From an uncultured Acidobacteriota bacterium (GTDB taxonomy: Bacteria; Acidobacteriota; Vicinamibacteria; Vicinamibacterales; CAVVIG01), in assembly GCA_963814975.1 (NCBI GenBank), contig CAWFFB010000010.1:1-64000 (forward strand): DNA of 64,000 nucleotides, given 5' to 3'. Position 1 is the stretch's first letter; the number at the start of each line of letters is the position of its first letter. The translations under genes were made by a program, and so were the position numbers. The notes under the pieces are model-generated. The model was not told the origin of the DNA and did no database searches. It was given only the letters and a program-made list of their open reading frames with translations. Of this stretch, positions 3,930-54,115 are shown piece by piece.

Positions 3930-4871
3930 GGTACGAGTCGGAAGAGCCGACCCGGCTCGGCCTCGTCACGGAGCTGCAGCGCATCCGCCGCCGCATGGCG
4001 CGTGAAGCCGTTGCCGGTGCTGTTGCTCGCGGTGCTGATCACCGGCGGCGGTCACGTACAAGATCGCGAAGAAGCCGCGCATCTACGAAGCCGAGGTCGT
4101 GCTCGCGCTGACGCGAAGGCCGATGGCTCGCGCGAGCAAGCGCGGCATTCCGTTCGGCGAGCTGAAGGGCTCGTCGTCGGTGCTGATGCCCGATGCAGAA
4201 GCTCGTCAAGCTGATCGAGAGCCGCAACCTGCACCGGCTGCGCAAGAAGTTCGGCGATCCAGTACGCGATGACGAGCTCCGCGATCAGGTCGAGATCGAG
4301 ATCTGGAAGAACTCGTTCATGTACTACGACCCGAAGAGGCCAACGGCACGACGTCCGCGCGCGTCGGACTCACCGTCGTCGAAGGGGATCCCGACCACGC
4401 GTTCTTGCTCGCTCGCGACCTCGCGACGCTCGTCATCGCCGAGGGGTTCGAGAACATCGGCTCGTGATACGCCAAGAAGGTCGCGATCTGATATCGCCGC
4501 ACGGTACGCGAAGGGATGATGTCGAGAACGGATGGCCAACCTCGAGCACGAGCGCACGACGAAGATGGTCGCCATCTCGACCGCGCATCGCGAGCACAAG
4601 GAGGCCCTCGCCCAGGTGCTCAACATCAGCTCGTCACGAGATCGACGATCAACAGCAGGCAAACCGAGAAGACGCTCTCCGAGATCGCGCACTCGCAGGA
4701 GGCGCTGTCCGATCGCATCGCCGCGGCCGGCCTCGACCTCGTGATCGAGATCGTCAGCGAGCAGCGCCCGACCGGCCGGAGAGCAAAGGCTTGCTCATTG
4801 CGATGATCGCGGTCGTGGGTCGGGTGTGGGCGCGCCTGCTCGGCGCGGCACTCGTGCTTCGGTGCGTTTGA
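3930..4871 (+). CDS. Wzz/chain-length-determinant-like membrane protein, frameshifted
   Basis: The N-terminal TM-like piece is KPLPVLLLAVLITGGG followed by YKIAKKPRIYEAEVVLAL. The C-terminal TM-like piece is KGLLIAMIAVVGRVWARLLGAALVLRCV, stopping at 4871. The architecture is that of polysaccharide co-polymerases; the frame changes several times. Confidence 0.35.
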
Positions 4872-4989
4872 TTCACGTGTACATGAAACAGACGACATTG
4901 ATCGGCTGGGACTCCCGGTTTCGGGCCATGTGCCTGGAAAAATGCCGGGTGACACGCCTCGGAAGACTCGAGGCACGCGGTGTGCAACG

Positions 4990-6430
4990 CGGTCGTGTAC
5001 ATGCCACCCAGCGTCGACCAGGCGTCGAATGGGCGCACAGCGTGCAGGACGCGGCGGCCATGGTCCGCGACTACATCAAGTGGGACGATCAGCCGGTCTC
5101 GCTGCCGCACTTTGCCGAATCGGCCGTGCGCGCGTACAAGATTGCGATGACACCGCCGATGATGCCCGTCCTGATCGTCATCGACGGGGGGCTGCAGGAA
5201 GATCCGATCTCCCCGGAAATCAGCGCACGCCTCCGCGTGCCGAGGCTGACCGTCGCGACACCGCCGCAAGGCGATTCCGGCGCGGTCACCGAAGCGGCGC
5301 GGCTGCTCGTCAACGCGCAGACCCCGTTGATTGTCGCCGACCGCGCCGCCCGCACCCCGGCGGGACTCGCGAGACTCCTCGAGCTCGCCGAGACGCTGCA
5401 GGCGCCGGTGGTCGATCAGGGCGGGCGCATGAATTTTCCTTCGCGGCATCCTCTCAATCAGAGCTCCAGCGCACGGCAGCTGGTCACCGGCGCCGACGTG
5501 ATCCTCGGGCTCGAGCTGACCGATTTCTGGGGTACCGTTGACACCGTCCGCGACTCGCTCGTTCGCACATCGCGATCGCTGATCAAGCCAGGGACGAAAC
5601 TCATCAGCATCACCGCGACGGATCTCTTCACCAAAGGCAATTACCAGGACTTCCAGCGGTATCCGGAGGTCGACCTTGCGATGGCGGCAGATGCGGAAGC
5701 CACCTTGCCGGCGCTCATCGAGGCGTGCAAGCGCTTGATCAATGCTGATCGCCAGCGCGCATTCCAGGAGCGCGGCACTCGTCTGGCCGACGCGCACGCG
5801 GCGGCGCTCAACCGCGCCCGCGCCGAGGCGACGTACGCGTGGAACGCCTCTCCGATCAGTACGGCCCGGTTGACCGCAGAGTTGTGGGCGCAGATCAAGA
5901 ACGAGGACTGGGCCCTGGTCTCGGAGAGCGGCAACAGCAGCGGCTGGGCGATGCGGCTGTGGAGCTTCGACAAGTACTACCAGTTCCTCGGCGACTCGGG
6001 AGGCGCTGGTGTCGGCTACGGCGCGCCCGCAGCGGTCGGCGCCGCGCTCGCGAACAAGAAGCACGGACGGCTATCGGTCAATATTCAGGGCGACGGCGAC
6101 TTCCTGTATGCACCGGGTGTCTGGTGGACCGCGGCCCATCACCGCATTCCGCTCCTCTCGGTCATGCACAACAACCGGGCATACCACCAGGAAGTCATGC
6201 ACATTCAGCGCATGGGCAATCGCCATAATCGGGGCGTGACGAAGGCTCATATCGGCACGACGATCGACAATCCGAACGTCGACTTCGCGAAAATCGCCCA
6301 GGGTATGGGTGTCCACGCGCAGGGGCCAATCACGAACCCCGCCGATCTCGGACCGGCCATCAAGCGTGCGCTGGATGTCGTCAAACGCGGCGAGCCGTCG
6401 CTGATCGACGTCGTCACGCAGCCGCGCTAG
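4990..6430 (+). CDS. thiamine-pyrophosphate-dependent enzyme (acetolactate synthase / benzoylformate decarboxylase superfamily), N-terminally truncated
   Basis: The ORF is intact from about 5020 to the stop at 6430. It carries the ThDP motif GDGDFLY...N(28)HNN, a central TH3-like domain and the tail of the Pyr domain (VRDYIKWDDQPVSLPHFAESAVRAYKIAMTPPMMPVLIVID). The first roughly 110 residues of the Pyr domain are absent, and the space upstream is occupied by the Wzz-like gene. Confidence 0.7.
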
Positions 6431-6441
6431 AGGGGCAGGAG

Positions 6442-6915
6442 ATGAAGCGCTTTGCACTTCTCGCGCTGGTCGTGATTGCCACCCTGACGCTGGCGCCAGT
6501 CGCCGATGCGCAGGCGCCATTGCAGCTTCAGGCGAGCGCGTCGGCTTCTCAGGAGGAGAAAGCGTCGTCGCCGGCTCAACCGCCTGCGGCGACCCAGGGC
6601 CAAACGACGACGCCGGCGTCGCCAGCAGCTGCGGCTCCAGCTGGCGACCCGGCAACCGGCAGGAAGCTGTTCGTAAGCGACGGTTGCTATCAGTGCCACG
6701 GCTATGAGGCACAGGGATCAACCGCGACCGGCCCGAGACTTGGGCCACGTCCTATCTCATTCGCCGCTTTTTCCAGGTACGTGCGCCAGCCGACCGGTCA
6801 GATGCCCCCGTACACGAGCCGGATCGTGTCGGACACGGACCTGGCTCACATCTATGCTTTTCTGCAGGCGCTACCGGAACCGCCGGCGGTGCAGAGCATC
6901 CCGTTGCTGAAGTAG
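6442..6915 (+). CDS. class I c-type cytochrome (periplasmic, signal peptide)
   Basis: Signal peptide MKRFALLALVVIATLTLAPVADA and a single CYQCH heme-binding motif. Size 157 aa. Confidence 0.85.
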   Translation: MKRFALLALVVIATLTLAPVADAQAPLQLQASASASQEEKASSPAQPPAATQGQTTTPASPAAAAPAGDPATGRKLFVSDGCYQCHGYEAQGSTATGPRLGPRPISFAAFSRYVRQPTGQMPPYTSRIVSDTDLAHIYAFLQALPEPPAVQSIPLLK

Positions 6916-6929
6916 GTTCCACAACCACT

Positions 6930-7376
6930 TCACAACGTCTCGATCCCTCTCTTGATGCCCTCGATGAACGTGTCGATGTTCTTCGTGGCCATCCGATCCA
7001 GGAGGCCCTGGGAGCCGAAGGCCGCCATTTTTCCTGAAACGTTCACGGACCCGCGCCACGTCACGAGGGTTTCGCCGCTTGCCGACGTCGCGAGCGTGAA
7101 GCTCGTCACCATGTCCACTACGCTGGCCAATCCGGTGCCCTTGCCGGTCACGGTCGTGCTGATTGGCGGCTGGCGATCAGTGATCGCCAGCTTCATGATC
7201 ATCAGTCCCTTGATGTGCGAGATGCCGACCCTCGCAGTCACCGTGAAGTGATCGGGGTCTTCTATCTGAACTTCTTTGACGTCCGGCATGTGGCGGCTCA
7301 CGCTGTGCGGATCGGTCAAGAAGGCGTACACATCTTCTCTGGGCGCCTTGACGCTGAATTGTCCTTCCAGCTGCAT
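6930..7376 (-). CDS. coxG: CoxG-like SRPBCC protein (carbon monoxide dehydrogenase subunit G family)
   Basis: 148-aa intact ORF beginning MQLEGQFSVKAPREDVYAFLTDP, typical of CoxG/SRPBCC. It lies immediately downstream of the CoxM-like gene. Confidence 0.75.
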   Translation of the reverse strand: MQLEGQFSVKAPREDVYAFLTDPHSVSRHMPDVKEVQIEDPDHFTVTARVGISHIKGLMIMKLAITDRQPPISTTVTGKGTGLASVVDMVTSFTLATSASGETLVTWRGSVNVSGKMAAFGSQGLLDRMATKNIDTFIEGIKRGIETL

Positions 7377-7423
7377 CCTCGTCCTCTCGTATCTTGAGAT
7401 TGCTCCGCCCCTTTGCGGAGCCT

Positions 7424-8317
7424 TCAGGGCTGCAGGGTCCTGACCTCGCGTCCACGCGCCCTGTCCACGGCGGCCGTGAAGGCTCGTCTGAAAAGGACCC
7501 CGGCGAGATGACGTTTATAGTCAACCGTCCCTCTTGCGTCCTCGAACGGTTGGGCCTCGTCCCGAACCAGCCGTTCAGCCTCGCCGAGAAGAGTCGCCGT
7601 CGGAAGCTCGCCGTGCAGGAGCGTCTCGGCTGCCCGCGCTCTTATCGGTGCGGCTCCGAGTGCTCCCAGACTGACGGCCACCCTCCCGCAGCGTTCTCCT
7701 TCGGACAATTCGAGTTGAACGGCCACGCTCGCGACCGCAAAATCACCAGCCCGTCGCTCGAATTTGACATATGCGCCGCCGCACGGTCTTCGCGGCACCG
7801 GTACGGAGACTTCCGTCACCATCTCTGCGGCTCCAAGCTGGGTGGTATACGCATCAACGATGAACTCGGTCAGCGGAACGCGGCGAACCCCCTGCAGACC
7901 CGTGATCGAGACCTCTGTGTCCAGCGCCAGCAGGGCTGTGGGCCAGTCTCCCGCCGGATCTGCATGGGCCAGGCTGCCTCCAATGGTCCCGCGATTGCGG
8001 ACCTGGACATCGGCGGTCACGTTTGCCGCATCCGTCATGATTGGCAGGTGTTTCCGCACCAGGGGCGATTCGGCGATCTCGGCGTGCCTGCAGAGGGCCC
8101 CGAAAATGAACCCGGCGTCAGAATACCTGAATCCGGTCAGCGAGCTCACGTGGTTGACGTCCACGAGGTAGCGAGGGCTCGCAATCCTGAGCTTCATCAT
8201 CGGGATGAGGCTTTGTCCACCTGCCAGAATCTTGGCGTCCTCGCCGTAGCGGGAAAGGAGCTCCAGCACCTCCTCGATCGTCTGCGGCGCGAAGTATTCG
8301 AATTCAGCGGGATACAC
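7424..8317 (-). CDS. coxM: molybdenum hydroxylase FAD-binding medium subunit (CoxM / xanthine dehydrogenase family)
   Basis: 297-aa intact ORF. MYPAEFEYFAPQTIEEVLELL...ILAGGQSLIPMMKLR and NRGTIGGSLAHADPAGD are the FAD-binding PCMH-domain motifs. Confidence 0.85.
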   Translation of the reverse strand: MYPAEFEYFAPQTIEEVLELLSRYGEDAKILAGGQSLIPMMKLRIASPRYLVDVNHVSSLTGFRYSDAGFIFGALCRHAEIAESPLVRKHLPIMTDAANVTADVQVRNRGTIGGSLAHADPAGDWPTALLALDTEVSITGLQGVRRVPLTEFIVDAYTTQLGAAEMVTEVSVPVPRRPCGGAYVKFERRAGDFAVASVAVQLELSEGERCGRVAVSLGALGAAPIRARAAETLLHGELPTATLLGEAERLVRDEAQPFEDARGTVDYKRHLAGVLFRRAFTAAVDRARGREVRTLQP

Positions 8318-8331
8318 TGTTACATCCTCTT

Positions 8332-9349
8332 ATGAAAATTGACGCCTTCAATCACATCATCACTCCCCGGTACCACCAGCGCCGCATGAAGGTCGCGCCC
8401 GCCGGAATGCGGCTGCAGGACGCGGAACGCAGTCTTCCGACGCTGTTCGATCTGGACCGCCGGCTCCGTGTCATGGACACAGCCGGAGAAGGCTACGTGC
8501 AGATCATCAACACGGCCAATCCGCCGGTTGAGAGCATGGCTGGTCCCGTCGACGCACTGGAACTGTCGCGGATCGCGAATGACGAGATGGCGGAGCTGGT
8601 CTCGCGTTTTCCCGACCGCTTCCTTGGCGCGGCGGCCTGTCTTCCGATGAACAACCCTCAGGGGGCGCTCGATGAGCTCGACCGCGCGGTCGGGCAACTG
8701 GGCCTTTGTGCCGTCCAGATCTATACCGACGTGCAGGGACGGCCGCTCGACGACGCCGCGTTCTCGCCTATCTTCGACAAAGTGGCCGACCTCGACATTC
8801 CGATACTGCTCCATCCGGTTCGAGGTCCCGACCGAACCGACTATCCCACGGAACGTTCGAGCCGTTTCGATACATGGCGGATCGTCGGCTGGCCCTACGA
8901 TACGACGGCGGCCATGGCGCGTCTGGTGTTTGTGGGGCTCTTCGATCGGCACCCCGAAGATCAAGATCGTCACGCATCATCTGGGAGGCGTGGCCCCCTA
9001 CCTGTCCGAGCGAATACGGGAAGGGTACGACAAGCTCCTGAAGGCCGCCCGCGGCGCCAACGAACCGGTTCCGCTGAAGAAACACCCCCACGACTACTTT
9101 CATGAGTTCTATGCCGACACGATCACGATCGGCTCGGTGCCCGCCCTCGCCTGCGGGCTCGAGTTTTTCGGCGCCGACCGCGTCCTGTTCGCCACCGATA
9201 TGCCGTTCGATACCGAAGGTGGTCTCAAGTACGTCGAGGTCGCTCTGCAGGCCATGGAGAAGCTGGACGCGCCGGCGAGCGACAAGGAAAAGATTTTCGA
9301 GCTGAACGCAAGAGCGATGTTCCGCCTGCCCGGCACCAAGTCAACGTGA
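8332..9349 (+). CDS. amidohydrolase_2 family protein (ACMSD-type metal-dependent hydrolase/decarboxylase), one frameshift near 8945
   Basis: ORF 8332..9105 (MKIDAFNHIITPRY...LFDRHP) joins ORF 8672..9349 (KIKIVTHHLGG...VLFATDMPFD). This is the TIM-barrel amidohydrolase-2 signature; the frame changes once. Confidence 0.75.
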
Positions 9350-9377
9350 ATCTGAACCAACGCCTCGCCCTTGGACC

Positions 9378-11009
9378 TCAGCGATCGTCCCAGTCCGCGG
9401 TCGCGAGGAACTTCGGCGGGCGGCGATGCTTGGTCCCCTGCTCGTACGCGTACGCGAGTTTGATCAGCAGGGCTTCGCTCCACGCGCGGCCGATGAACGA
9501 GATCCCGACCGGCAGGCCAAACGCGTAGCCGGCCGGTACCGTGATCGAAGGATACCCGGCGACTGCCGCCGGGGTGCTGCTTGACCCGATAAAGTGGTCG
9601 CCGTTGACGAGATCCGTCGGCCATGCCGGGTGGCCAGTTGGCGCGACAAGCGCATCCAGACGGAGGCCGTCGATCACCGCGTCGATCCCCTCTTTCCGCG
9701 ACAACCGCAAATTCATCGCGAGCGCGTCGCGGTATGCCTTGTCGGTGAGGGGGCCCTTCTTCTGGGCCTGAACCAGGAGCTCCTGACCGAAGAACGGCAT
9801 CTCGCGGGAGCGATTGGCCTCGTTGAATGCGATGAGATCTGCCAGCGAGTGCACCCTCGCCGACGGCCCCAGTGCGCCGAGATACTTGTCGAGATTCGCC
9901 TTGAACTCATACAACAACACCTCGAGCTCGCTCGCGTCGTATCGGCCGGCGTTCGGGATATCCGCCGGATCAACGATGACGGCGCCGAGCTCCCTCATCC
10001 GCTCGATTGCAGTGTTGGCGATTCTGTCGGTCACCTCGCTGTACCCGAAGAACGTCGCGCGCGCCACACCGATGCGCGCACCGTGCAAACCGTCCCTCTC
10101 CAGCGATGCGCGGTAGTCTGTCACCGTCCGGTGGCGGCTCGTTGTCGCTGGATCGCGCGGATCGACGCCTGACAGGACGTTGAGGAGCGCCGCGGCGTCT
10201 TCGACCGTCCGGGCCATCGGCCCGGCGGTGTCTTGGCTGGGCGCGATGGGTATGATGCCGGACCGACTGACCAGCCCCACCGTCGGCTTGATGCCAACGA
10301 GCGACGTCGCGCTGGACGGACAGACGATCGATCCGTCGGTCTCCGTGCCGACGCCAACCGTCGAAAGACTCGCGGCGACGGCGACGGCCGTTCCCGAGCT
10401 CGATCCGCACGGATTGCGATCGAGCGCGTATGGATTGAGCACCAGACCGCCGCGTCCGCTCCAGCCGCTCGTCGAACGCGTCGATCGGAAGTTCGCCCAT
10501 TCACTCAGATTCGTCTTGCCGAGAATGACTGCCCCGGCGGCGCGCAGGCGCTCGACGATGAAGGCGTCGCGGGCGGCGATCGAGCCATCGAGCGCGAGCG
10601 ACCCGGCGGAGGTCGACATGCGATCCGCCGTGTCGATGTTGTCCTTGATCAGAACCGGAACACCGTGAAGCGGTCCGCGCGGGCCGCCGGCCTTGCGCTC
10701 GGCGTCGAGCGCGTCGGCAATGGCGAGGGCGTCGGGGTTGAGCTCGATGACCGAATTGAGCGAGGGACCATTGCGATCGAGCATCTGGATACGCGAGAGA
10801 TACTGCTCCGCAATCCGTCGCGCCGTGCGACGGCCCGACTGCTGATCCCGTGCAAGGTCCGCGATGGTCGCGTCCTCGAGATCGAACCGCTCGGGAGACG
10901 ACTGGGTTGCACGCTCGCGGGCCTGGGTGGACCCGATGGCGACCAGGAGGGTGCCAGCCGTCCCGCAGCAAGCGACGAGCAGCGCCACCGCACATGTACG
11001 CAGTCTCAT
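9378..11009 (-). CDS. amidase-signature family amidase, secreted
   Basis: 543-aa intact ORF with an N-terminal signal-like region (MRLRTCAVALLVACCGTAG) and the amidase signature GGSSSGTAVAVAASLSTVGVGTETDGSIVCPSS. Confidence 0.85.
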   Translation of the reverse strand: MRLRTCAVALLVACCGTAGTLLVAIGSTQARERATQSSPERFDLEDATIADLARDQQSGRRTARRIAEQYLSRIQMLDRNGPSLNSVIELNPDALAIADALDAERKAGGPRGPLHGVPVLIKDNIDTADRMSTSAGSLALDGSIAARDAFIVERLRAAGAVILGKTNLSEWANFRSTRSTSGWSGRGGLVLNPYALDRNPCGSSSGTAVAVAASLSTVGVGTETDGSIVCPSSATSLVGIKPTVGLVSRSGIIPIAPSQDTAGPMARTVEDAAALLNVLSGVDPRDPATTSRHRTVTDYRASLERDGLHGARIGVARATFFGYSEVTDRIANTAIERMRELGAVIVDPADIPNAGRYDASELEVLLYEFKANLDKYLGALGPSARVHSLADLIAFNEANRSREMPFFGQELLVQAQKKGPLTDKAYRDALAMNLRLSRKEGIDAVIDGLRLDALVAPTGHPAWPTDLVNGDHFIGSSSTPAAVAGYPSITVPAGYAFGLPVGISFIGRAWSEALLIKLAYAYEQGTKHRRPPKFLATADWDDR

Positions 11010-11183
11010 GGCACCTCCCGCGAAGGGCCCGAACGTGAATCCATCATGTGAACCCGATCCGGTTGCGATGGTCCAAGAGCGATCAGGTGCGGCGACCGTC
11101 CTGCCGAACGTCTTGCGGCGAGCCGTCGGATGGCATGAAGCGTCGCCCTCGGAAGGCGGCGTGCTCGCTGGTGCATTGACTCT

Positions 11184-13606
11184 CTAAACTGAAGTCGGGA
11201 CCGGGCGCTTGCGGATCAGCTGCCAGACCCTTGCAGGCGACAGCGGCAGCTCTCGAATATTCACGCCGAGCGGTGAGAGCGCGTCCTCAACGGCACTCGC
11301 GATCGCGGCCGGAGACGGAATCGCGGCGCCTTCGCCGGCGGCCTTCTGGCCGAACGTCGTGTAGGGGCACGGCACCGGGTGGTGCTCCACCTCGATATGG
11401 GGAGTCTCCAGGGTCGTCGACTTGCCATAGTCGAGCAGCGTGAGCGTCAAGAGCTGACCGTCGGGGCCATAGACGAATCCCTCACCGAGCGCCACGGAGA
11501 TCCCGTGCGCCGCGGAACCGTAGATCTGTCCATCGACCACGGCGGGGTTGATCAACGTGCCGTTGTCGCTGACGATGACGTAGCGCAAAACGCGGACTCG
11601 TCCCGTCTCGGCGTCGACTTCGACCACCGCAGCATGAGCCGCGGATGAAAACGTGTACTGCGCCCGGACGCGGCCGTGCCGGTCGGGCAGCATCAGTGGA
11701 TCGGCGTGCGGGTGCTGGTGGTAGTACGTCACCTCGAGACCAGGCTCAAAGCCTTCGGGAATGAGTGACTGGTTGCCGTAGGCGATCTTGCCGAGTTGCG
11801 CGAAGCTGATCGTCTTGGCCGCATCGGACCTGCTGCATACGACACCGTTCTCCAAGACGAGGCAGCTCTTCTCTGTCTGAAGCACGTGCGCGGCGAGCGT
11901 CAATATCTTGTCCCGCAGTCGCGTGGCCGCTCCGTGGACGGCGCCGACGTCATAGAGATGGAAGTTGTTGCCGCTGTTCGAGGACGATACGCCCCACGGA
12001 GAGAGAAGGGAATCAAAAGGGCCGGCCATCGAGATACGTTCAGGGGCGATTCCGAGGATGTCGCCGGCAATCTGAGATGCCGTGGTTCCATGGGACTGTC
12101 CGCAGCTTGGGGAGCCCAGCGTGACCACGACGCCGCCATTCTTCTCGATCTTTACCGTGGCGCCCTCCACGCCGCCGGCGCCGGGCATCTGCTTCGATTC
12201 CGGAAAAATAGCCATGTCGCGAGCTGCATTCCTGCCGCCGGGCTCGACGCCGATGACCACGCCGACTCCGATCAGGCGGCCGTTCGCTCGTTCCACTGCC
12301 TGGGTCTCTCGAACCCGGTCATACCCGACGTTCGTTAGGACCTTGTCCAGCAGCGTCTGATAGTCGCCGCTGCCGTGAATATTGCCGTTCGGAGTCGTAT
12401 ACGGGAACTGATCGACGGCAATGAGGTTCCGGCGGCGCACGGCGACAGGGTCGAGCGCCAGTTCCCGGGCGACGCCGTCCATCATGCGCTCCCAGATGAA
12501 GCACATCCCCGGTTTGCCGATTCCGCGGTTCGGGACGACGGGGCACTTGTTGGTCAGAACCGACCGCCCCTCCAGCCTCAGGTGCTTGACGTTGTAGGTG
12601 TTGAAGAGATTGTTCAGCTTGTTGGTGAAATGGATCGTCAGCGTGCTGATCGAGCCGCCGACGTCGTCGGTGTCCAGAATCTTCAGGCCCAGAACCTCAC
12701 CATCGGCCTTGACTGCAGCTTCGACCTCGAACTCCTGATCGCACGAGTGACCTCCCGCCATCATGTGTTCGCTTCGATCTTCAATCCACTTCACCGGCCG
12801 GCCCGTCTTCAGGGCCATCAGCGCAGTCAGCACCGCGTATTTACGGATCAGGTGAATCTTCTGACCAAAACCTCCGCCGATATCCGGCACGATGACGCGG
12901 ACAGCCTCGATGCCCAACGCTTCGGTCAGCGCCTCGTACACGACTTCAGGAGACTGGGCATTGCACCAGATCGTCAATCGCTCTGGGGTGGATTCGGCCA
13001 GACAGGCAAATGGCTCGAGAGGCGTCGAGCTATAGCGGTGAATCTTCAGATGCTCGCCGGACGACACTGTCGGCGGCTCTGAAACGCGCGATCGACGTCC
13101 CCGTAAGACACATGGCCGCGCCAGGCGACGTTGCTCCCGAGCTCTTCGTACAGAAGCGGCGCGGATGGACCGGCCGCGTCCTCCGTGGTCGTGACGGCGT
13201 GAAGGCGGTCGTACTCGATCTCGATCAGGTCGAGCGCGTCCTCGGCTCTCGCGCGCGTGTCGGCCGCGACCATTGCCACTGGCTCGCCAACGTATCGCAC
13301 TTTGTCGACCGCAGACGCGTACTCGGGGATCGGAACGCGCAGACCTGCGGCATAGCGTCCCGGTTTGAAGGGTCGCGACATGCGCTTGACGTCATCCGGC
13401 GCGATGACACCCATCACACCCGGCAGGTGTGCGGCGCCCCCTGCGTTGACGGATGTGATCCGGGCGTGTCCGTACGGGCTGCGCAGTATGCAGGCGTGCA
13501 GCATCCTCGGGAGGACGAGATCGTCCACGAAACGCCCGCGGCCAGCGACATGGCGGGGTGCTTCCTTGCTCCTTGTGCTTTGTCCTATGTATTTTCGTTG
13601 TTCCAT
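11184..13606 (-). CDS. molybdopterin-binding large subunit of a xanthine-dehydrogenase-family hydroxylase (CoxL-like), one frameshift near 13060
   Basis: ORF 13046..13606 supplies the N-terminal part (HVAGRGRFVDDLVLPRMLHACILRSPYGHARI). ORF 11184..13067 supplies the remaining 627 aa. Together they make about 800 aa, the usual size of this family. Confidence 0.85.
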
Positions 13607-14140
13607 TGCCCGCCTTTGCGTGCGTCAGCCGGGCTCGCCGCCTGGCCCTGCGATGCTTGACCAGGCGGATGCGTCGACAGCGTCAGGGCGGCCTGTTTGA
13701 CGGCTTCCACGATCTGCATGTAGCCGGTGCACATGCAAAGGTTGCTCGAGAGGTCCTTCCGAATGTCCTCTTCGGTCGGAGCAGGATTGCGGTCCAGCAG
13801 CGAATAACTGGCCATCAGGAACCCCGGCGTGCAGAAGCCGCACTGCAACGCGAAGTTGCGGATGAAGGCTTCCTGAATCGGATGCAGCGTGCCGCCTCGG
13901 GCCAGTCCCTCTACCGTCGTCACGTCGCGGTCGATTGGCTTGCACTGCGAGCATCAGACACGATTTCACGAGAGCGCCGTCGACCAGAACCGAGCAGGCC
14001 CCGCATTCGCCGACGACGCATCCGACGTGTGTGCCGGTCAAACCAAGCGTCTCGCGTAGAAACTGCACCAGCAGCGTCCGAGGTTCCGCCTCCTCCTCGT
14101 ACGATTGGCCGTTGACCCGGACGTTCACCCGAAGTTTCAT
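13603..14140 (-). CDS. coxS: [2Fe-2S]-binding small subunit of molybdenum hydroxylase (CoxS-like), one frameshift near 13900
   Basis: ORF 13625..14140 begins [17 protein letters not shown]...[16 protein letters not shown], the plant-ferredoxin-like cluster. ORF 13585..13923 carries [15 protein letters not shown]...NLCMCTGY, the second cluster. Confidence 0.8.
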
Positions 14141-14348
14141 GACCTGCTTCCGAAGTAGGTAGCGTCCGGCTTTAGCCGCACCTGCCGACGATCTGCCTGC
14201 CGCCTTGACGCGCGAAGCGCGCTTCGGCGAGCCTCACCGGCGGAGGCAAGAAGACGGACACTACCGCATTGTGAAAAGCGCTTTGAGTCCAGAACAGCTT
14301 CCAAGACCGACCGGACGGGAAGTTCCTTCATTCGCGGGGACATTGACT

Positions 14349-16371
14349 TCAGAAGATGCTCAGCAGGACACCGGCCGGGAGCGGCGTGTGCAGGACCCGA
14401 TCGAACAGCCCGTAAACGAACAGCCAGGATGCCAGCGCATAACTCCCCGCCATCACGGGCGACTCGCGCGAAGCGGTCAGCAGGTAGAGCAGCGCGAACA
14501 GCGGAACAGTGACCAGCGCGCCCAGCAGCCACAGCATCGCGAAGAAGCCGCCCATCCAGCTGAGAGCTGACATCCACTGCGCGCGCGACGCCGTCGCCAG
14601 GACATCGATCAATTCGGCCTCCTCGACAGTGTCCTCTTCCACGAGTCCCTGCAGCTCGATCGGAACCAGACGCCGGGCGGGCGCGAAAGCGAGCGCGAGC
14701 TTCAGCAGCGCCATGCCGAACAGGACCGAGCCGGCGGCGAGCGGGAAGAGACTGGTGCGAAACGGCCATGCGCGCGCCTGCACGAGCACTGCCGCCGCCA
14801 CGCTCAGGAACACAACGGTAATGGCGATGTCCATGCTGAGCAGTCGCCGAGGCCACCGGACGGTGTCGTCGGCCAGGTCGGGAGGGCTTGCCTGGGACCG
14901 ACCCTGCTTGCTGATCCGCATCCGAACGAATGGCCAGGCCACGCCGGCAATGGTGACCGCAGCGAACGCCACTACCAGCGGGCGCTTCAGCCACGTCCAC
15001 TCGTAGAGCGAATAGGACAGGAACAGGTAACGTTCGGCGATGTCGCCGAGGACCAGGGCCAGCAGCAAGGGCGCCCGCGGCCAGTCCCACAGGACCGCTG
15101 CGATGCCGACGGCCGTCGCTGCCAGCATCAGGAGAATGTCGGCGAAGGTGTTGTGCGCGGTGTAGGCGCCGAATGCGAGGAGTACCAGCAGGAAGGGCAC
15201 GAGCAGCGTCCCCTTCACGCGGGTGAGGCGAACCAGCTGGTTGAGGAACAGGAAGGACACCGAGACCGCGATGATATTCGAGAGGACGATCACCCAGACC
15301 ATCGAGTAGGTGACGTCGAGGTTTTTCGTCAGCATGGCCGGCCCCGGCACCAGGCCTTTGAGCAGGAAGACGCTCAGCAAGAATCGCCATCGAGATGCTG
15401 CCGGGAATACCGAACGCGACCGTCGGGATCAGGTTGCCTCCCTCCCGCGAATTGTTGACCGCGCCGGCCGCGAGCACGCCTTCGACGTTGCCCTTGCCGA
15501 ACGTCTCCGGGTGCTTCGAGGTCTGCTGGGCGTGAGCGTACGCGATGAACTGCGAGACCGCTCCGCCCATGCCGGGGATCACGCCGATGGCGACGCCGAT
15601 GGCGCTGGCGCGAAGCGTCAGCGACATGTGCGCGAACGTGTCGCGGACGCCTTGCATGACGCCGGCAATCGGTCGGCTCTCTGCGGATCGCGCGATGCTG
15701 CCCTTGGTCATCATCAGCTGCAGCACTTCGGCACCGCCGAAGAGACCGACGACAACCGGCACGACGTTGACGCCGTCCCAGAGGTACAAGTGGCCGAACG
15801 TGAAGCGCTGGATGCTGCTCTGCGGATCCAGTCCCACCATCGCGAGCAGGAATCCGAACGCGGCCATGATGAACCCCTTCACCAGGTTCCGCCCGGCGAG
15901 AGAGATGATGAAGCTGAGGCCGAGCAGCGTCAGCATCAGGAACTCGGGAGGGCCAAACGCGAGCACGAGCGGACGGATCACCGGCACCGACACGGCCAGC
16001 ACCGCCGCGCCGACCAGGGCGCCGACCAGCGAGCTGAACAACACCGCGCCGAGCGCCCGACCGGCCTCGCCGCGGCGCGTCATCGGGTAGCCGTCCAGCA
16101 CCGTCGCGGCGGATGTCGCCTCGCCCGGGATGCCGAACAGCACCGAGGTGATGTCGCCGGCCGTGGCCGTCACCGCGTGCATCCCCAGCAGGAAGGCGAA
16201 CGCCGAAATCGCGTCCATCGGATAGACGAACGGCAGCATCATCGAGAGCGTCGCGGCCCCTCCCAGCCCCGGCAGGATCCCGACGACGAGGCCGACCGCG
16301 ATTCCAACCAGCATGATGCCGAAGGTGTGGGGGGCGAGCACCTGCAGCAGCGCCGCGAAGAAGACGTTCAA
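14349..16371 (-). CDS. tctA: tripartite tricarboxylate transporter large permease TctA with C-terminal TctB-like extension, one frameshift near 15350
   Basis: The N-terminal 340 aa of ORF 14137..16371 are TctA-like (MNVFFAALLQVLAPHTFGIML...GIPGSISMAILAERL). ORF 14349..15380 continues them (LLKGLVPGPAML...) and then adds about 160 aa of extra TM helices resembling the small TctB subunit. The start overlaps the ubiD-family stop by 4 nt. Confidence 0.75.
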
Positions 16372-18059
16372 TCCTTCCTGTCCATCGGGCTGACGCCGGG
16401 CCCCGTGAGGTCTTCGTTCGTAAAGTCGGGCGCCTTCGAGCCCGGTCTAGAGGGTGTCGGGGACGCAGAGCCGGCCGGCCGGCTGCTATCGGAGGATTCG
16501 CCCACCGCCGTCGACGGGAGGACGCTTTCCGGCAGCGGGAAGCGCGGGTCCGCGAAGAGATCCTTCCACTTGGCGACCGTCTCACGAATGAGCGCCGGGC
16601 TCGCTTGAGCCACCCGTGGAAACGTGTCGAGTTTTTCGAAGGGGCGGCAGGCATCGATCAGCGCGCGCGTGTTGTACGGAACAGCCGGGTTTTCGAGCAG
16701 CGGGTCTACTTTGCTGCCCCAGGACCTGCGCATGATGTCGATGTCCCCGGCGGGCTCGCAGCGAGTGCAGACGGCCCACATCACCTCATCCAGGTTCATC
16801 GGATCGACGTCCTCGTCCACGACAATCACGAAGCGGTTCATGTAGGCGGCGGCCTGGCACTGCGCGGCGATGTAGCCGGCCTGTCGCGAATGGCCGCAGA
16901 AACGCTGCGTGATCGAAACAACCACCAGCAGGCGCCCGCCGCCGGTCTCGTGGGCCCAGACGCCCCGCACATCTCGCACGCCGACCTTGCTCAGCTCGTC
17001 CTGGATCATCGCCGATTTCAGCAGGGCGCGCATATACGAGTAGTCGTTGGGCGGCTTGCCAGGCGGCGCGCCGAGGATGATCGGGTTGTTCCGGAAATAC
17101 AGTCGCTCGATGTCGATGGTCGGGACCGGGAGCCGGGAACCCGAATAGTAGCCGGTCCACTCGCCGAACGGGCCTTCGCGAAGCACCCTGTCTGGATGGA
17201 TCCAGCCCTCCACCACGATCTCGGCGGCGGCCGGCATCGGCAAGCCGGTCACCTGGCCGCGGACAACGCTCAATTTCTGACCGACCATTGCCCCGGCGTA
17301 CGCATACTCGCTGATTGTGTTCGGCACCTCGGTGCCGGCGACCATCAGCAGCAGCGGGTCGTGGCCGAAGGAGGCCAGGACCGGCGCTTTGCCATGCTTC
17401 GCGAACCAACGATCGTATTGCGCCCGGCCCTGCTTGCCGGCCTCCGCGTTGATGGTTGCCGATCGGCCGCCCTCCTGAATCATCATGCGATATGCGCCGA
17501 CGTTAATCCGTCCCGTGTCGGGGTCACTTGTCACCACCGCGACGCCGGTGCCGATGTAGCGTCCGCCGTCGTGTTCGTGCCAAAGCGGCGCCGGGAAGCG
17601 AGCGAGGTCAACGTCGCGGCCCACGACGACGTTTTCGAAGATCGGCCCACGCTCGAGCACTTGCGGCTCAAAGCGTGGCGCGGCGGATTCCCACTCGAGC
17701 GGCTTGCCGCGAAGCGCCTGGACGAGCCCGATCGTGTCGAGCCCTGGGTCGAGTCCAAGCGTGACCGCCATGCGGCGCGCGTTGCTGAGGGAACCGGTCA
17801 GCACCCGGTACCCGCGTGGGTAGCCGACGATGTCGTCGAACAGGAGCGCGGCGGAGGGCTTCCTGCGGTAATTGATCTCCGAGATCGCTCCAATCTCGCG
17901 ATCCCAATGGGCACCGGAGACGTGCTGCAGTTCGCGCAGGCTCTCGATTCGTGCAATCCAACCGCGGAGCTCGGTCGGCCGCCCGGTCGGCACGGGTGTC
18001 CCGCCCGCGGGGCCAAAATCATCGACGCTGCTCATCTCGGCTACTCCACTGCGCGGCAA
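16368..18059 (-). CDS. UbiD-family (prFMN-dependent) reversible decarboxylase
   Basis: 563-aa intact ORF. Its length and overall sequence fit UbiD/Fdc1/VdcC. Recognisable stretches include GPFGEWTGYY and RFPAPLWHEHDGGRYIGTG. Confidence 0.85.
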   Translation of the reverse strand: MPRSGVAEMSSVDDFGPAGGTPVPTGRPTELRGWIARIESLRELQHVSGAHWDREIGAISEINYRRKPSAALLFDDIVGYPRGYRVLTGSLSNARRMAVTLGLDPGLDTIGLVQALRGKPLEWESAAPRFEPQVLERGPIFENVVVGRDVDLARFPAPLWHEHDGGRYIGTGVAVVTSDPDTGRINVGAYRMMIQEGGRSATINAEAGKQGRAQYDRWFAKHGKAPVLASFGHDPLLLMVAGTEVPNTISEYAYAGAMVGQKLSVVRGQVTGLPMPAAAEIVVEGWIHPDRVLREGPFGEWTGYYSGSRLPVPTIDIERLYFRNNPIILGAPPGKPPNDYSYMRALLKSAMIQDELSKVGVRDVRGVWAHETGGGRLLVVVSITQRFCGHSRQAGYIAAQCQAAAYMNRFVIVVDEDVDPMNLDEVMWAVCTRCEPAGDIDIMRRSWGSKVDPLLENPAVPYNTRALIDACRPFEKLDTFPRVAQASPALIRETVAKWKDLFADPRFPLPESVLPSTAVGESSDSSRPAGSASPTPSRPGSKAPDFTNEDLTGPGVSPMDRKD

Positions 18060-18157
18060 CGAAGCTTCGCCTCAAACCGCCAAGTTGCCGCCCGCACGCA
18101 GGGTGGCGCACCACAGAAGTATTTGCTTCACGCGTGACGTTCCCGCCCAAGAAGAGT

Positions 18158-19324
18158 CTAGGGCTGGAGGATCTTCTGGTACTTCGCTGCAATGTCGGGC
18201 GTCGTGGCCAGCACCTCATTGAGGACCTTCTGGATCTCGCCCGCGGTCTTCGGCTGGAACTCGAGCTTCAGCGCCTTGGCCTCCGCAAGGAAGGCCGCAT
18301 CCTGATAAGTCGCCATGAGCGCGTTGCGCATCACCCGCACGCGGCTTTCGTCGACGCCCGGCGGCAGGGTGAAGGGCTTGCTCATCGCCCCAGGCGCATC
18401 CACCAGGCGAAGCAGGGCTCGACTTTCCTCGTCCTTGGCGAACTCCAGCGCCAGTGGCACGTTCGGCAGATCCCTGTGCCGCGTGGTCCCGTTCTGAACG
18501 AACACGAGGGCATACTTGTCGTCCAACCACTGGGTCGAAGCCGACCGCACCGACTCCCAACCGAGACACATGCCCTGAATCTCGCCTCGCTCGACCCCGA
18601 TCCGTACGTCGTTCGTCGTGGGGTAGCCAGCCACGGCCTTCAGGTTCGCTCCGGTCGCCATCGCGAGGACGCGGGGGGCGTCATAGGTGTTCGAGCCAGG
18701 TCCCGTCCCGCCGACCGCGATTGGCGTCGCGCGGCCGATCATGTCTTTGAAGGCCGTCGCGGACGCGTCGGTGCGCACGATGCACACATTGGGATCGACG
18801 TACGAGCTACCCAGCCAGTTGAACTCCCGCAGGTCGAACTGAACGCCCTCGACGCCGGTCAATTGGCTCATGACCTGCGCCTCGTGGAAGAGACCAATCA
18901 CCGTGCCGTCTTTCGACGCGGCGCTGAACATGTGGTTCGCGGCCACCAGACCACCGCCGCCAGGCATGTTCTGGACGATGACGATGGGCGCGCCCGGAAT
19001 GTGCTTCCCAATATGGCGCGAAACCAGGCGCGCCGTCGTATCGAAGCCGCCGCCCGCTCCCGATCCGACGATGATGCTGACGGTCTTCCGGCGATAGAAC
19101 GCCTCGGCTGCTTGCCGCTGCTCGGCGGTCAGCGCCGGCGCGCTCGCGTCAATCTGGGAGGTGGTCGGGATGGACTCGGCGCTTGGGACGGTCGCGGGAG
19201 GAGGCGGCGGGGGTGCTTCTCCGCAGGCGACCAGGGACAGCGCCGCCGCCAAGCCGAGGACGGTGCGCCACATCTTGTCATTCACGTGATTGATGCCCGC
19301 CCAGGCCTTGCCGCGGTCGGCCAT
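18158..19324 (-). CDS. tctC: TctC/Bug-family periplasmic substrate-binding protein
   Basis: 388-aa intact ORF with a signal peptide/lipobox (LSLVACGEA) and the Bug-family fold motifs (IIVGSGAGGGFDTTARL, QNMPGGGGLVAAN). Confidence 0.85.
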   Translation of the reverse strand: MADRGKAWAGINHVNDKMWRTVLGLAAALSLVACGEAPPPPPPATVPSAESIPTTSQIDASAPALTAEQRQAAEAFYRRKTVSIIVGSGAGGGFDTTARLVSRHIGKHIPGAPIVIVQNMPGGGGLVAANHMFSAASKDGTVIGLFHEAQVMSQLTGVEGVQFDLREFNWLGSSYVDPNVCIVRTDASATAFKDMIGRATPIAVGGTGPGSNTYDAPRVLAMATGANLKAVAGYPTTNDVRIGVERGEIQGMCLGWESVRSASTQWLDDKYALVFVQNGTTRHRDLPNVPLALEFAKDEESRALLRLVDAPGAMSKPFTLPPGVDESRVRVMRNALMATYQDAAFLAEAKALKLEFQPKTAGEIQKVLNEVLATTPDIAAKYQKILQP

Positions 19325-19692
19325 TACCGGACTCGTCCGGTCCGGATGAAGGGGATACTACTTACAGGCATGTGAAACGGCTCTAGGGTACATCAACCCT
19401 CCGCGAACCAAAAGATTCGCTGGGCGTGGAGCCTCGAGGTGTCGAGCCGCGCCGGAGCACACGCACGTTGACGCGACGCTTGCCGAACGTTTTGGCCCGC
19501 CGGCAGTCGGGCACGAAGGGGTCGATTCGGCGGCCCTTTACAGCGGCGCCCCCATCAGTCACTGTGTGGGTTCCTGAGTACCGGCTGGGCTGGTACCGAC
19601 ATCGATAACCGACCCGAGCGGCAAGGCCGGATGATCGGCGCGATGCCCCCGATGGCTGGCATTCACTTTGCCGGGAATATTCGAGGCATTTC

Positions 19693-22974: not shown

Positions 22975-23990
22975 AAAATGCGACGACTTGAACGACGCGC
23001 GTTGGCAGCCGCAGGCCTGGGTCTGTTTCTGACGCTGTCAGGCCGGCAGGCTGAACTCCAGGGCAGCAGCGCGGCGATGGCGCCGCCCGGGGACAGGGCG
23101 GTGGAGGCCGCGGCCGGATCGAGGTCTGGGCGCCGATGCCCGTCAAACCGAATCCCTTTGTCCCTCCGAACAAACCCCTCACGAAGCTGTCCGATCTGCT
23201 CACCAAGCACAAGAGCGAGCAGAACTGGACCGAAACCGTCGTCAGCGACAACCTGTTTCACGGCGACTACATCGCGATGGGCCTGGGCGGGAAGACGCCG
23301 AGGCGGTTCCATCAGGACAACCGTGCATTCTGGATCGTGCAGGACGGGCAAATCCGCTTCACGATCGAAGGCCAGGAGCCGTTTGTCGCCTCGAAGGGAT
23401 TCCTGGTACAGGTGCCGAAACGCCTCGTCTACAGCATGGAGACGGTGGGCGACAGACCGTCGCTGCGGTTCGAGGTGACGATGGCAAATTCGAGCATCAT
23501 GTATCCGGCCGATGAGACGCCAACGCCGGTGCCCGGTGTGCGGTTTGAGAGGACCAGAGTCGCGAACGCGAAAGGCGCGTACGACGAGGCAAACGTGCCG
23601 TTCATCGACTTCAACCTGACGATCGCCGGACACCCGAAACCGAAGAAGAATCAAAATCAATTTGTCGGCGACCCTCACGACGGCGGATACGTCAATGTGG
23701 GCATCTCCAACATCATCAGAGGCAACCCCGCCACGCAACCGCCGGCGCGCGAGGACGACCTGGGCCACTTTCACTTAACCGGCCCGGAGTTCTGGTTCAT
23801 GCTGGAGGGCCAGAATGAGTTCAAGATAGGGTCGATTCCCATCTTCGTTGCCAACCAGGGCGACATCGTTTACGCCCCGGCTCAGACGTGGCATCGTCCC
23901 CGCCACGTCGGCACTGGCATGGCGACCCGCCTGGCGATCGTCGGATATGCGAACTCGCACGTTTACGGGTTGACCGGCGGAGCCGAATAA
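22975..23990 (+). CDS. bicupin-domain protein, probable Tat-exported; signal peptide lies in a different frame from the mature part
   Basis: ORF 23136..23990 (284 aa) has two cupin-like halves (FWIVQDGQIRFTIEG... and FWFMLEGQNEFKIGSIPIFVANQGDIVYAPAQTWHRP). Upstream, in frame +1, MRRLERRALAAAGLGLFLTLSG is a twin-arginine signal; it runs out of frame at about 23090-23135. Confidence 0.6.
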
Positions 23991-24138: not shown

Positions 24139-24853
24139 ATGAACTGTCCGAGCTGCGCGAACGAGATGGCCGCGCAGGCGCTCGTCGGTCATGTTGGCCG
24201 GAACGTGGACATCGACGCGTGCACCGGGTGTCAGGCGTTCTGGTTCGATCGCAGCGAAAGCGTTCAGCTGTCTCCAGCCTCGACGCTCAAGCTGTTCACG
24301 CTGATCGGGGAGGCATTGTCAGAAAGACGAGGGACGGTCGCGGCCGTCCTGAAATGCCCACGATGCCGCTCGCGACTGCTCGACACACACGACATGCAGC
24401 GGAATACGCCGTTCCGCTACTGGCGATGCCCGCACGAGCACGGGCGGTTGATCACCTTCCTGGAGTTCCTGCGCGAGAAGGACTTCGTTCGTCCGCTGTC
24501 CGCCTCAGCAGCTTGACGAGCTGCGCCGCAACATCCAGACCGTGAACTGCTCCAACTGCGGTGCGCCGATCGATCTGGCCAGAGGTTCTTCGTGCGGCCA
24601 CTGCGGCTCGCCGCTATCGATGCTCGACCTGAAACAGGCCGAGGCCGTCGTGGCCCAGCTGCGGCAGGCATCGGAGCCGCGATCGGTGAATCCCTCTCTC
24701 CCGCTCGAGCTTGCACGAGCGCGGCGCGAGGTGGAGGAGGCATTCGCCGGCTCGGGAACCGCGGCTGAGTGGTGGAGCGATGCCTCCGCGTTCGGGCTCG
24801 TCGAGGTCGGGCTCACCGCCGTCGCGCGCCTGCTCAAAAAGGCTACGAGTTGA
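24139..24853 (+). CDS. double zinc-ribbon protein, one frameshift near 24500
   Basis: ORF 24139..24516 carries MNCPSCANEM...CTGCQAFWFD and CPRCRSRLLD...WRCPHEHG. Collinear ORF 24542..24853 carries VNCSNCGAPIDL...CGHCGSPLSMLD. That makes three to four CxxC...CxxC ribbons. Confidence 0.5.
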
Positions 24854-35799: not shown

Positions 35800-35971
35800 C
35801 GGGTGGACCCTTTTAAGTGCGGTGCCCTGACGACGTATTGTGCCCGATGGATCCTTAGACTGAAACTCATGGTGATGAGGTTACAGCCTTTTCGTGCAAC
35901 GTAGTGCTGGCAACTCCAGTCGGGACAATATCAAGCGGAAGATTGCATGTGCGGCGAGGCAGAGAGAATAT

Positions 35972-38365: not shown

Positions 38366-38431
38366 TGCGGGTGGCCGCTCTCACGGCGGCCTACCCGTTA
38401 TCGGTTCAATCTTCCCAGAGGATTAGTTGTC

Positions 38432-51309: not shown

Positions 51310-54115
<2,806 letters not shown>

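Follow-up and report, generated by a model that had tools for sequence, protein, structure and literature searches.

Only one characterised pathway, that of the lumazine cluster I in Cupriavidus sp. LA-1, joins an XOR-type molybdenum (Mo) dehydrogenase, an amidohydrolase_2 protein and a UbiD-family decarboxylase; there, the Mo dehydrogenase is followed by an amidohydrolase_2 isomerase and then by UbiD, which acts on xanthine-8-carboxylate (Doi, Maeda and Takaya 2025, PMC12391406). The hmf clusters, of the Cupriavidus basilensis HMF14 type, combine a UbiD/UbiX decarboxylase of 2,5-furandicarboxylate (HmfFG) with a furoyl-coenzyme A (CoA) dehydrogenase (HmfABC) and, sometimes, with TctC (PMC8091172). 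Here we analyse a gene cluster in a stretch of 64,000 nucleotides (nt) of contig CAWFFB010000010.1 (positions 1-64,000; the whole stretch is called the window below) from a soil acidobacterium of the order Vicinamibacterales. The cluster encodes a tripartite tricarboxylate transporter (TTT), a UbiD-family decarboxylase that depends on prenylated flavin mononucleotide (prFMN), a three-subunit Mo hydroxylase of the xanthine dehydrogenase (XDH) family with a CoxG protein, and an amidohydrolase_2 protein.

We consider this cluster, with a probability of about 0.6, to be a copy of a conserved Vicinamibacterales operon for the uptake and initial breakdown of a carboxylic acid with an aromatic or, as seems more likely, a heteroaromatic ring. 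An earlier note on this DNA had read the genes as a catabolic module for a transported (hetero)aromatic acid, which is well supported by the results presented here, and had added details, a maleamate-type amidase and a picolinate-type route, that do not survive.

A conserved cluster around a UbiD decarboxylase

Gene families were assigned from a listing of the open reading frames (ORFs) of the window and Pfam, with NCBIfam and PDB-sequence comparisons added for selected proteins. The ten families recognised in the earlier note are all present at essentially the coordinates it gave; what did not hold up is the continuity of four of the genes, tctAB, coxS, coxL and amidohydrolase_2, which are not single ORFs, their intervals not being multiples of three. 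The core of the cluster follows the order TctC-UbiD-TctAB-CoxS-CoxL-CoxM-CoxG, with amidohydrolase_2 lying antisense between CoxL and CoxM. Five or more related contigs from Vicinamibacterales (L001/L002, L004, L006, L010 and L090) have the complete core in this order, with the same overlaps between genes, and L005 and L008 keep it with amidohydrolase_2 reduced to remnants. Because the gene order recurs in independent contigs, the clustering exceeds what would be expected by chance, and the conserved order bears out the idea of the Tct uptake system, UbiD, the three-subunit Mo hydroxylase with CoxG, and amidohydrolase_2 as one functional unit.

The sample that we analysed across phyla consists of 80 loci of the closest UbiD relatives (45-84% identity) in species-representative genomes. 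XDH-family subunit genes are found within 10 kb of ubiD in 54 of these loci, an amidohydrolase_2 homologue in 22, both in 18, and TctAB in 7. The phyla represented include Acidobacteriota, Actinomycetota (Streptomyces, Pseudonocardia, Amycolatopsis and Micromonospora), Binatia and Deltaproteobacteria-like lineages. The layout in Pseudonocardia and Streptomyces comprises a NitT/TauT-type ATP-binding cassette (ABC) importer, UbiD and a GntR regulator, followed by Amh2-CoxM-CoxS-CoxL or by CoxS-CoxL-CoxM...Amh2, and UbiX is often encoded nearby in Actinobacteria. Given this cross-phylum linkage, UbiD, the Mo hydroxylase and, often, amidohydrolase_2 are best viewed as a conserved functional module that is no accident of one genome. 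Relatives of the UbiD protein number in the thousands; homologues with 80-94% identity are very numerous in soil metagenomes and, where named, come from Vicinamibacterales or Acidobacteria, and the closest UbiD in species-representative genomes is 84% identical.

The operon, which is encoded on the minus strand, starts with an intact ORF (18158-19324) for a TctC-like periplasmic substrate-binding protein. Its match to Pfam TctC is weak, and it is 80-87% identical to orthologues annotated TctC in L001 and in the syntenic contig L003; the N-terminus contains a hydrophobic stretch ending in Cys (LSLVAC), which suggests a lipoprotein. The membrane permease gene tctAB (14349-16371, minus strand), which contains one inserted base and encodes 673 amino acids (aa) when corrected, fuses TctA (323 bits, split over two frames) and TctB (31.6 bits versus a cut-off of 29.1) in one polypeptide. 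A TTT system is recognised here from TctA and TctB by Pfam and from TctC by position and orthologues. Upstream of the cluster in L001 (929-8577) and also in L002, there is a second TTT system, with a TctC-TctB fusion, together with TcuA/TcuB-like genes (FAD_binding_2 and CitB), which suggests a tricarballylate-type module, and a gene for a secreted Amidohydro_1 protein with a signal-like N-terminus. The window carries none of these genes.

The UbiD-family prFMN-dependent decarboxylase (16368-18059, minus strand) belongs to the family by UbiD_N, UbiD and UbiD_C matches that are all above the Pfam cut-offs, and its gene shares 4 nt with tctAB, the ubiD stop codon running into the TTG start codon. 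The protein contains the motifs GAYR and EGPFGEW, which we take, unaligned, to correspond to R173, E277 and E282 of Fdc1, that is, the Arg and Glu-x4-Glu catalytic residues. By a wide margin, its closest solved relative is PhdA (PDB 7PDA; E 4e-88 over residues 42-499), with 300 bits compared to at most 169 bits for other solved relatives (next best E 2e-48 or weaker). PhdA, from Mycolicibacterium fortuitum, decarboxylates phenazine-1-carboxylic acid and is a prFMN enzyme for N-heteroaromatic carboxylic acids (PMC10850782). It is, however, a distant homologue only, and the clade to which the window protein itself belongs, at 45-94% identity, is uncharacterised. We know of no link of PhdA to a Mo hydroxylase or a TTT system.

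In the orthologous clusters, ubiD likewise lies within the transporter operon, and in Actinobacteria and on an Aromatoleum plasmid, it is instead an ABC importer that precedes the orthologous UbiD. These positions support the suggestion of the earlier note that the transported acid is the substrate of UbiD. The Aromatoleum case is plasmid 2 of A. aromaticum EbN1 (9141-13422 of L085), where a UbiD protein that is ~44-45% identical to that of the window (WP_011255029) follows a NitT/TauT-type ABC importer in a phthalate-degradation region, between two copies of UbiX and phthaloyl-CoA decarboxylase genes; we know of no described function for this protein.

The Mo hydroxylase is encoded in two blocks on the minus strand. 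The CoxS-like [2Fe-2S] small subunit (13585-14140, 184 aa when corrected) has its Fer2 and Fer2_2 domains in different frames, and the CoxL-like molybdopterin large subunit (11184-13606, 806 aa when corrected) has Ald_Xan_dh_C in a frame other than that of MoCoBD_1 and MoCoBD_2. The end of coxS, previously placed at 13603, is at 13585, so that coxS overlaps coxL by 22 nt, the same as in L001. The second block consists of the CoxM-like flavin adenine dinucleotide (FAD)-binding medium subunit (7424-8317; FAD_binding_5 and CO_deh_flav_C), which is 83.5% identical to its L001 orthologue, and the CoxG-like SRPBCC protein (6930-7376; Pfam COXG, E 1.5e-27). The coxG gene follows coxM in all orthologous clusters. 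In the hmf clusters, a CoxG-like domain forms the C-terminal part of the large Mo subunit, which has ~1015-1030 aa (12792-15884 of L087, the C. oxalaticus plasmid, and 14092-17142 of L091, from Paraburkholderia largidicola), and in the window this domain has a gene of its own. From this comparison, CoxG would seem to be a constant partner of the Mo enzymes of this subfamily.

The two blocks are separated by the divergent amidohydrolase_2 gene (8332-9349, plus strand; 338 aa when corrected), which encodes a member of the ACMSD superfamily, with the PF04909 fold matched by Pfam in two pieces that lie in two frames. The closest solved relative is the uncharacterised 3IJ6, followed by LigW and gamma-resorcylate decarboxylase (gamma-RSD); further relatives include 2,3-dihydroxybenzoate decarboxylase, ACMSD and iso-orotate decarboxylase. 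When the protein is aligned with 3IJ6, LigW and gamma-RSD, it shares with them two His and one Asp, in LHP, THHLGG and TDMPF, and the N-terminal HxH is replaced by D-x3-H, the same as in 3IJ6. The conserved His, His and Asp are presumably the metal ligands, and the protein is predicted to be either a decarboxylase or a hydrolase.

The amidohydrolase_2 start is 14-15 nt from the coxM start (8317-8332 in the window; 17731-17747 in L001), antisense inside the operon, an arrangement that implies either promoters inside coding sequence or read-through across the antisense gene. Internally deleted remnants of amidohydrolase_2 are present between coxL and coxM in L005 (16971-17506) and L008 (16435-16719), and this decay is genuine, unlike the point insertions in the window that are described below. 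From this distribution, amidohydrolase_2 is judged to be ancestral to the cluster and dispensable in some lineages. The separation of CoxS and CoxL from CoxM and CoxG was noticed before and is real, but the earlier view of it as unusual is not supported: the split is conserved through the antisense amidohydrolase_2 and is widened here by the insertion of an amidase gene.

That gene (9378-11009, minus strand) encodes a secreted amidase-signature amidase with a signal peptide (Pfam Amidase, E 3e-97) which is closest to the Stenotrophomonas peptide amidase (PDB 1M21, E 7e-154) and scores above the NCBIfam PRK08137 cut-off. The amidase is found in none of the 80 UbiD genome loci and is absent from L001, L004, L006, L010 and L090. 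The gene is, by this comparison, a later lineage-specific insertion, between coxL and amidohydrolase_2, of an unrelated secreted peptide-amidase-like gene. An exact-sequence look-up in a public collection found no protein identical to the amidase or to CoxM.

Comparison with the hmf and lumazine clusters

Of the known systems, the hmf and lumazine clusters come nearest to the window cluster in gene content, and the earlier note mentions neither. Among the relatives of CoxL that were found, the highest phmmer scores (490-492 bits) belong to the large Mo subunits encoded in canonical hmf clusters of Cupriavidus and Paraburkholderia. The clusters of the C. oxalaticus plasmid and P. largidicola resemble the window cluster in the action of UbiD on an imported dicarboxylate and in the three-subunit XDH-family hydroxylase with a CoxG domain, and the former also includes a TctC-type binding protein. 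The differences are nevertheless substantial. The window CoxL is 37.5% identical to the HmfA-like subunit, below the criterion of at least 45% identity for HmfA orthologues (PMC8091172). The window UbiD is not HmfF-like, with 96-98 bits to HmfF-like proteins versus 300 for PhdA. The HmfD CoA ligase and the HmfE hydratase are missing from the window cluster, L001 and L090, and the cluster lacks HmfG/UbiX and the HmfH oxidase, whereas it has amidohydrolase_2, a full TctAB and a separate CoxG. On HmfA identity, on HmfD and HmfE, and on an HmfF-type UbiD with UbiX, the cluster falls outside the hmf type.

The likeness to the lumazine cluster consists in the three shared enzyme families and in a short, self-contained route that, in the case of lumazine, ends in a central metabolite. 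Accordingly worded for the window, a pteridine route would start with the Mo hydroxylase, continue with amidohydrolase_2 contracting the ring to a carboxylate and end with UbiD, yielding a purine-like product, and the report of lumazine-type clusters in several phyla, including Actinomycetota, fits such a reading (PMC12391406). Yet the beta subunit of DHLI is always accompanied by a COG0523-type GTPase, the LA1_0143 orthologue, and there is an alpha subunit in Proteobacteria (PMC12391406). The cluster has a single amidohydrolase_2 gene in place of an alpha/beta pair and no COG0523-type GTPase; the second (alpha) amidohydrolase_2, the GTP-binding chaperone, UbiX, the pterin deaminase and the nucleobase permeases of LA-1 are all missing, as is any pterin/cytosine deaminase or adjacent ubiX, and the importer is a carboxylate-type TTT instead of a nucleobase permease. 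This comparison is one of gene content. On the GTPase chaperone, the second amidohydrolase_2, the deaminase, the nucleobase permeases and an adjacent ubiX, the cluster falls outside the lumazine type, and we regard a pteridine route as improbable. The hits in a plasmid collection that were examined as possible lumazine decarboxylases were also rejected: these were ubiquinone-type UbiD/UbiX with UbiU/V/T, the Aromatoleum phthaloyl-CoA decarboxylase region, hmf clusters and a dihydroorotase-linked UbiD.

The cluster is an uncharacterised variant of a known pathway type. The hmf and lumazine clusters, in which UbiD and a Mo hydroxylase are joined by TctC or by amidohydrolase_2, lend support to the logic of the mechanism that we propose below for uptake and breakdown of a heteroaromatic acid.

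Single-base insertions across the window

L001 (ENA ERZ28563641), a metagenome contig with an intact orthologous cluster in which UbiD is 90% identical to that of the window, served as the reference for the breaks in the cluster. Protein tblastn and DNA alignment to this contig reveal five 1-nt insertions in four cluster genes of the window. One is located in tctAB (within 15371-15388; the L001 orthologue has 676 aa), one in coxS (within 13924-13943), two in coxL, 19 nt apart (13066-13084 and 13047-13065), and one in amidohydrolase_2, where an extra C is present in a CCCC run (within 8948-8965). A homopolymer location is true of only some of these insertions. When the five bases are deleted, proteins of 673, 184, 806 and 338 aa are obtained, which align end to end with the L001 orthologues.

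Breaks outside the cluster were sought by a maximal-segment scan of the whole window for abutting same-strand fragments and by a Pfam check for domains that span the junctions; an initial codon-usage Viterbi segmentation was too noisy for counting frameshifts. Many same-strand coding fragments abut in different frames. The uvrA gene is broken at ~51.83 kb (51824-51831), with UvrA_inter (profile positions 1-107) running across the junction, and lysA at ~58.79 kb (58780-58803), with Orn_Arg_deC_N (positions 3-245) running across. In a sugar transferase gene, Bac_transf runs across two junctions (~1406-1411 and 1629-1631); the first 4.8 kb of the window, with polysaccharide-synthesis genes, are especially fragmented. 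Compared with the syntenic contig L003, the gene for a 237-aa protein of unknown function near the cluster is also split (~24.48-24.50 kb; 24476-24498), as is the cupin gene beside it (~23.07-23.12 kb; 23070-23118) in which the phase differs from that of the +1 breaks. The gene for an NHL-repeat protein is broken too, and the break sites in the window include ~49075 and ~49400. Altogether, there are at least 12 breaks in 64 kb, five in the cluster and seven outside, with housekeeping genes among those affected. Frame arithmetic gives a +1 shift for six of the seven outside breaks, the exception being the cupin gene.

All eight core genes are under purifying selection, with ratios of nonsynonymous to synonymous substitution rates (dN/dS) versus L001 of 0.08-0.29 (0.08 for UbiD), parts downstream of the frameshifts included. 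Past the breaks, dN/dS is no higher than before them, save in the poorly conserved TctB half. Because similar +1 shifts break unrelated genes and dN/dS remains low past the breaks, assembly error is favoured over decay of the cluster: the five insertions are most likely assembly errors, and the operon is probably intact in the organism. With so many single-base insertions in the window, pipelines that annotate this assembly automatically will wrongly label many of its genes pseudogenes.

It could be argued, alternatively, that the frameshifts are real and that the operon is being lost in this strain, its genes having recently become pseudogenes. Four of the eight core genes are broken, the adjoining thiamine diphosphate (TPP) enzyme gene is truncated, and the deletions in amidohydrolase_2 of L005 and L008 demonstrate that natural loss of parts of the cluster is possible. 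However, uvrA, lysA and other unrelated genes are equally hit, a load that is implausible for a free-living soil bacterium; the five cluster breaks are insertions and all but one of the others are +1 shifts, whereas bacterial mutation is biased to deletions; and dN/dS is as low past the breaks as before them. A relic cluster is therefore quite unlikely. The simplest explanation is a technical one, an assembly prone to insertions, and a very recent genome-wide burst of insertions is a less likely source of the frameshifts.

The truncated gene (5003-6430, plus strand; Pfam TPP_enzyme_M and TPP_enzyme_C only) encodes the TPP-dependent enzyme that the earlier note had placed, with the cytochrome c, just beyond the cluster; the enzyme is there, but its gene is not intact. 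Homology starts at ~5003, and the first ~200 codons, which in the relatives encode a twin-arginine translocation (Tat) signal and an N-terminal domain, are missing, with no remnant upstream in any frame; for fragments in 4039-5100, neither Pfam nor tblastn identified a match to the missing N-terminus. In relatives, the enzyme is a Tat-exported protein of ~575-600 aa, and the orthologues in L007 and L008 contain the twin-arginine signal SVDRRxFLKGAA. The adjacent gene (6442-6915, plus strand) encodes a Sec-exported mono-haem cytochrome c with a CxxCH motif and a signal peptide (Pfam Cytochrome_CBB3 and Cytochrom_C). The two genes form a conserved pair beside coxG and convergent with it, in the window (5003-6915), L007 (11561-13600), L008 (18867-21100) and L090 (19545-21672). 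A link of this pair to the pathway is uncertain, and a pairing of a periplasmic TPP enzyme with a c-type cytochrome is not known to have been described.

The remainder of the window is ordinary chromosome, with rplU, rpmA, obg, nadD, rsfS, tmk, lysA, uvrA, lpxC, PBP1 and genes for peptide ABC transport. Neither Rfam models nor a tRNA search matched anywhere in the window. On its outer side, tctC is flanked by PBP1 and by a region (19383-19655) that is recognisable only as the C-terminal third of a 3D-domain protein, which L003 and L089 have between PBP1 and tctC; the remnant is either another damaged gene or the result of a deletion. A low-GC stretch at ~33100-38400 (52-54% versus ~65% elsewhere in the window), which may have been horizontally acquired, encodes two regulators, a TPR and sigma-54 activator protein (927 aa) and an HD-GYP/GAF/GGDEF protein (802 aa), followed by a subtilase gene.

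Proposed substrate class and route

The closest solved match of CoxL is the quinoline 2-oxidoreductase subunit QorL (1T3Q; 418 bits, E 6e-124). QorLMS is, like the window enzyme, a three-subunit Mo hydroxylase, it acts on N-heteroarenes, and the active-site loop has the same length as in the window CoxL. The picolinate dehydrogenase/PicC module likewise includes a three-subunit Mo hydroxylase acting on an N-heteroarene, and in the Pic pathway an amidohydrolase_2 decarboxylase (PicC) acts after the hydroxylation (PicA). These systems lack UbiD and TTT genes, whereas the window cluster lacks a ring-cleavage or maleamate branch. The earlier note had drawn this analogy further, to a pathway for a pyridine carboxylate such as picolinate, nicotinate or quinolinate with the amidase as the maleamate amidase. 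Besides the enzymes shared with Pic, a pyridine dicarboxylate would fit UbiD and the TTT importer alike. The analogy breaks down at the later steps: 2,5-dihydroxypyridine dioxygenase, N-formylmaleamate deformylase, maleamate amidohydrolase and maleate isomerase are all absent from the cluster and its orthologues. As for the amidase, it is secreted, peptide-amidase-like and missing from all orthologous clusters, and the maleamate amidohydrolases known so far (NicF) are enzymes of the isochorismatase family. Such a pathway is accordingly very unlikely, although a pyridine (di)carboxylate as such may be the substrate of the operon as we interpret it. Literature searches for a characterised pathway with UbiD, a Mo hydroxylase and amidohydrolase_2 on pyridine dicarboxylates or dipicolinate returned nothing relevant.

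Least of all can the genes be an aerobic CO dehydrogenase (coxSLMG) with a transporter and a decarboxylase beside it by chance: the best matches of CoxL among solved structures do include large subunits of CO dehydrogenases (8UEM, 1FFU and 1N5W) and a CoxG gene is present, but the loop VVPNRGIGKP, aligned with these three structures, is of Qor length, with neither the AYRCSFR motif nor the 2-residue insertion, HmfA-like and Qor enzymes outscore mycobacterial CoxL (398 bits, phmmer) and Hydrogenophaga CutL (361 bits), the NCBIfam models of CO dehydrogenase score far below their cut-offs (TIGR02416, 419.5 bits versus 991; NF040766, 476.3 versus 950), no coxD, coxE or coxF gene was found in the cluster, in orthologous clusters with precomputed Pfam matches or among the scanned window ORFs, and the linkage to UbiD is conserved across phyla. 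A large subunit closest to form-I CO dehydrogenases, with the full set of accessory genes, had been named beforehand as a finding that would overturn the catabolic reading; the loop, the NCBIfam scores and the neighbours all point away from it.

Several observations weigh against an operon for the breakdown of a heteroaromatic acid. Three UbiX sequences had no tblastn match in the window, and UbiX was not found in any Vicinamibacterales locus either; Pfam scans of most of the larger window ORFs, which do not cover the whole window, detected no ubiX, no gene for molybdenum cofactor insertion (xdhC/coxF) and no pathway regulator. The TctC-like protein is below the Pfam TctC cut-off (E 0.0013, 18.8 bits). 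No cluster protein reaches an NCBIfam equivalog cut-off. A consensus promoter scan found no promoters, and terminator-like sites are not more common than in shuffled sequence; the expression of coxM and coxG is assumed to come from read-through because the 14-nt gap is too short for an ordinary promoter. The last step of the mechanism outlined below would be dispensable in two related genomes because amidohydrolase_2 has decayed there. Finally, that the frameshifts are artefacts is something we infer, and it is the most likely reading of them.

What the comparisons establish is the gene content, the conserved order, the translational overlaps, the purifying selection and the linkage across phyla; the mechanism that we propose for this operon, in four steps, is read from the enzyme families. 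The TctC-like protein would capture the acid in the periplasm, and the fused TctA-TctB permease would import it. The PhdA-related UbiD, translationally coupled to the permease, would strip a ring carboxyl by means of prFMN, with UbiX encoded elsewhere. Cytoplasmic CoxS/L/M, with CoxG as a helper, would then place a water-derived hydroxyl on the ring carbon next to the heteroatom, and the electrons would pass through the iron-sulfur clusters and FAD to the respiratory chain as the presumed acceptor. Amidohydrolase_2 would remove a second carboxyl ortho to the new hydroxyl or open a lactam or lactone. The order of the reactions from the second step to the fourth is not fixed by the data.

A bolder extension, which we offer tentatively and consider rather unlikely, is a CoA-free, self-contained route in which a five- or six-membered heteroaromatic dicarboxylate would be imported, decarboxylated, hydroxylated as the free acid and then subjected to ring opening or decarboxylation, to give a central metabolite. 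Candidate substrates would include 2,5-furandicarboxylate and carboxylates of pyrrole, pyridine or pteridine, and the enzymes would be a new PhdA-related UbiD clade, an HmfA/Qor-related Mo enzyme and an amidohydrolase_2 of the 3IJ6 subfamily; the Tat-exported TPP enzyme and the cytochrome c might take part in periplasmic pre-processing. If this is true, the pairing of UbiD with a Mo hydroxylase in Acidobacteriota, Actinomycetota, Binatia and others marks a widespread, undescribed soil pathway.

Returning to the conserved operon as such, few carbon sources have been established for Vicinamibacterales, which are abundant in soil and difficult to grow in culture. The UbiD clade is very strongly conserved in this order, with 80-94% identity, and is linked to XDH-family hydroxylases in several phyla, a pattern that points to a widespread natural substrate, probably a heteroaromatic acid released in the turnover of plant, microbial or pigment material. 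Once identified, this substrate would extend the cycling of carbon and nitrogen in soil by a so far undescribed pathway, and biocatalysis would gain both a prFMN decarboxylase/carboxylase and a Mo hydroxylase that are new.

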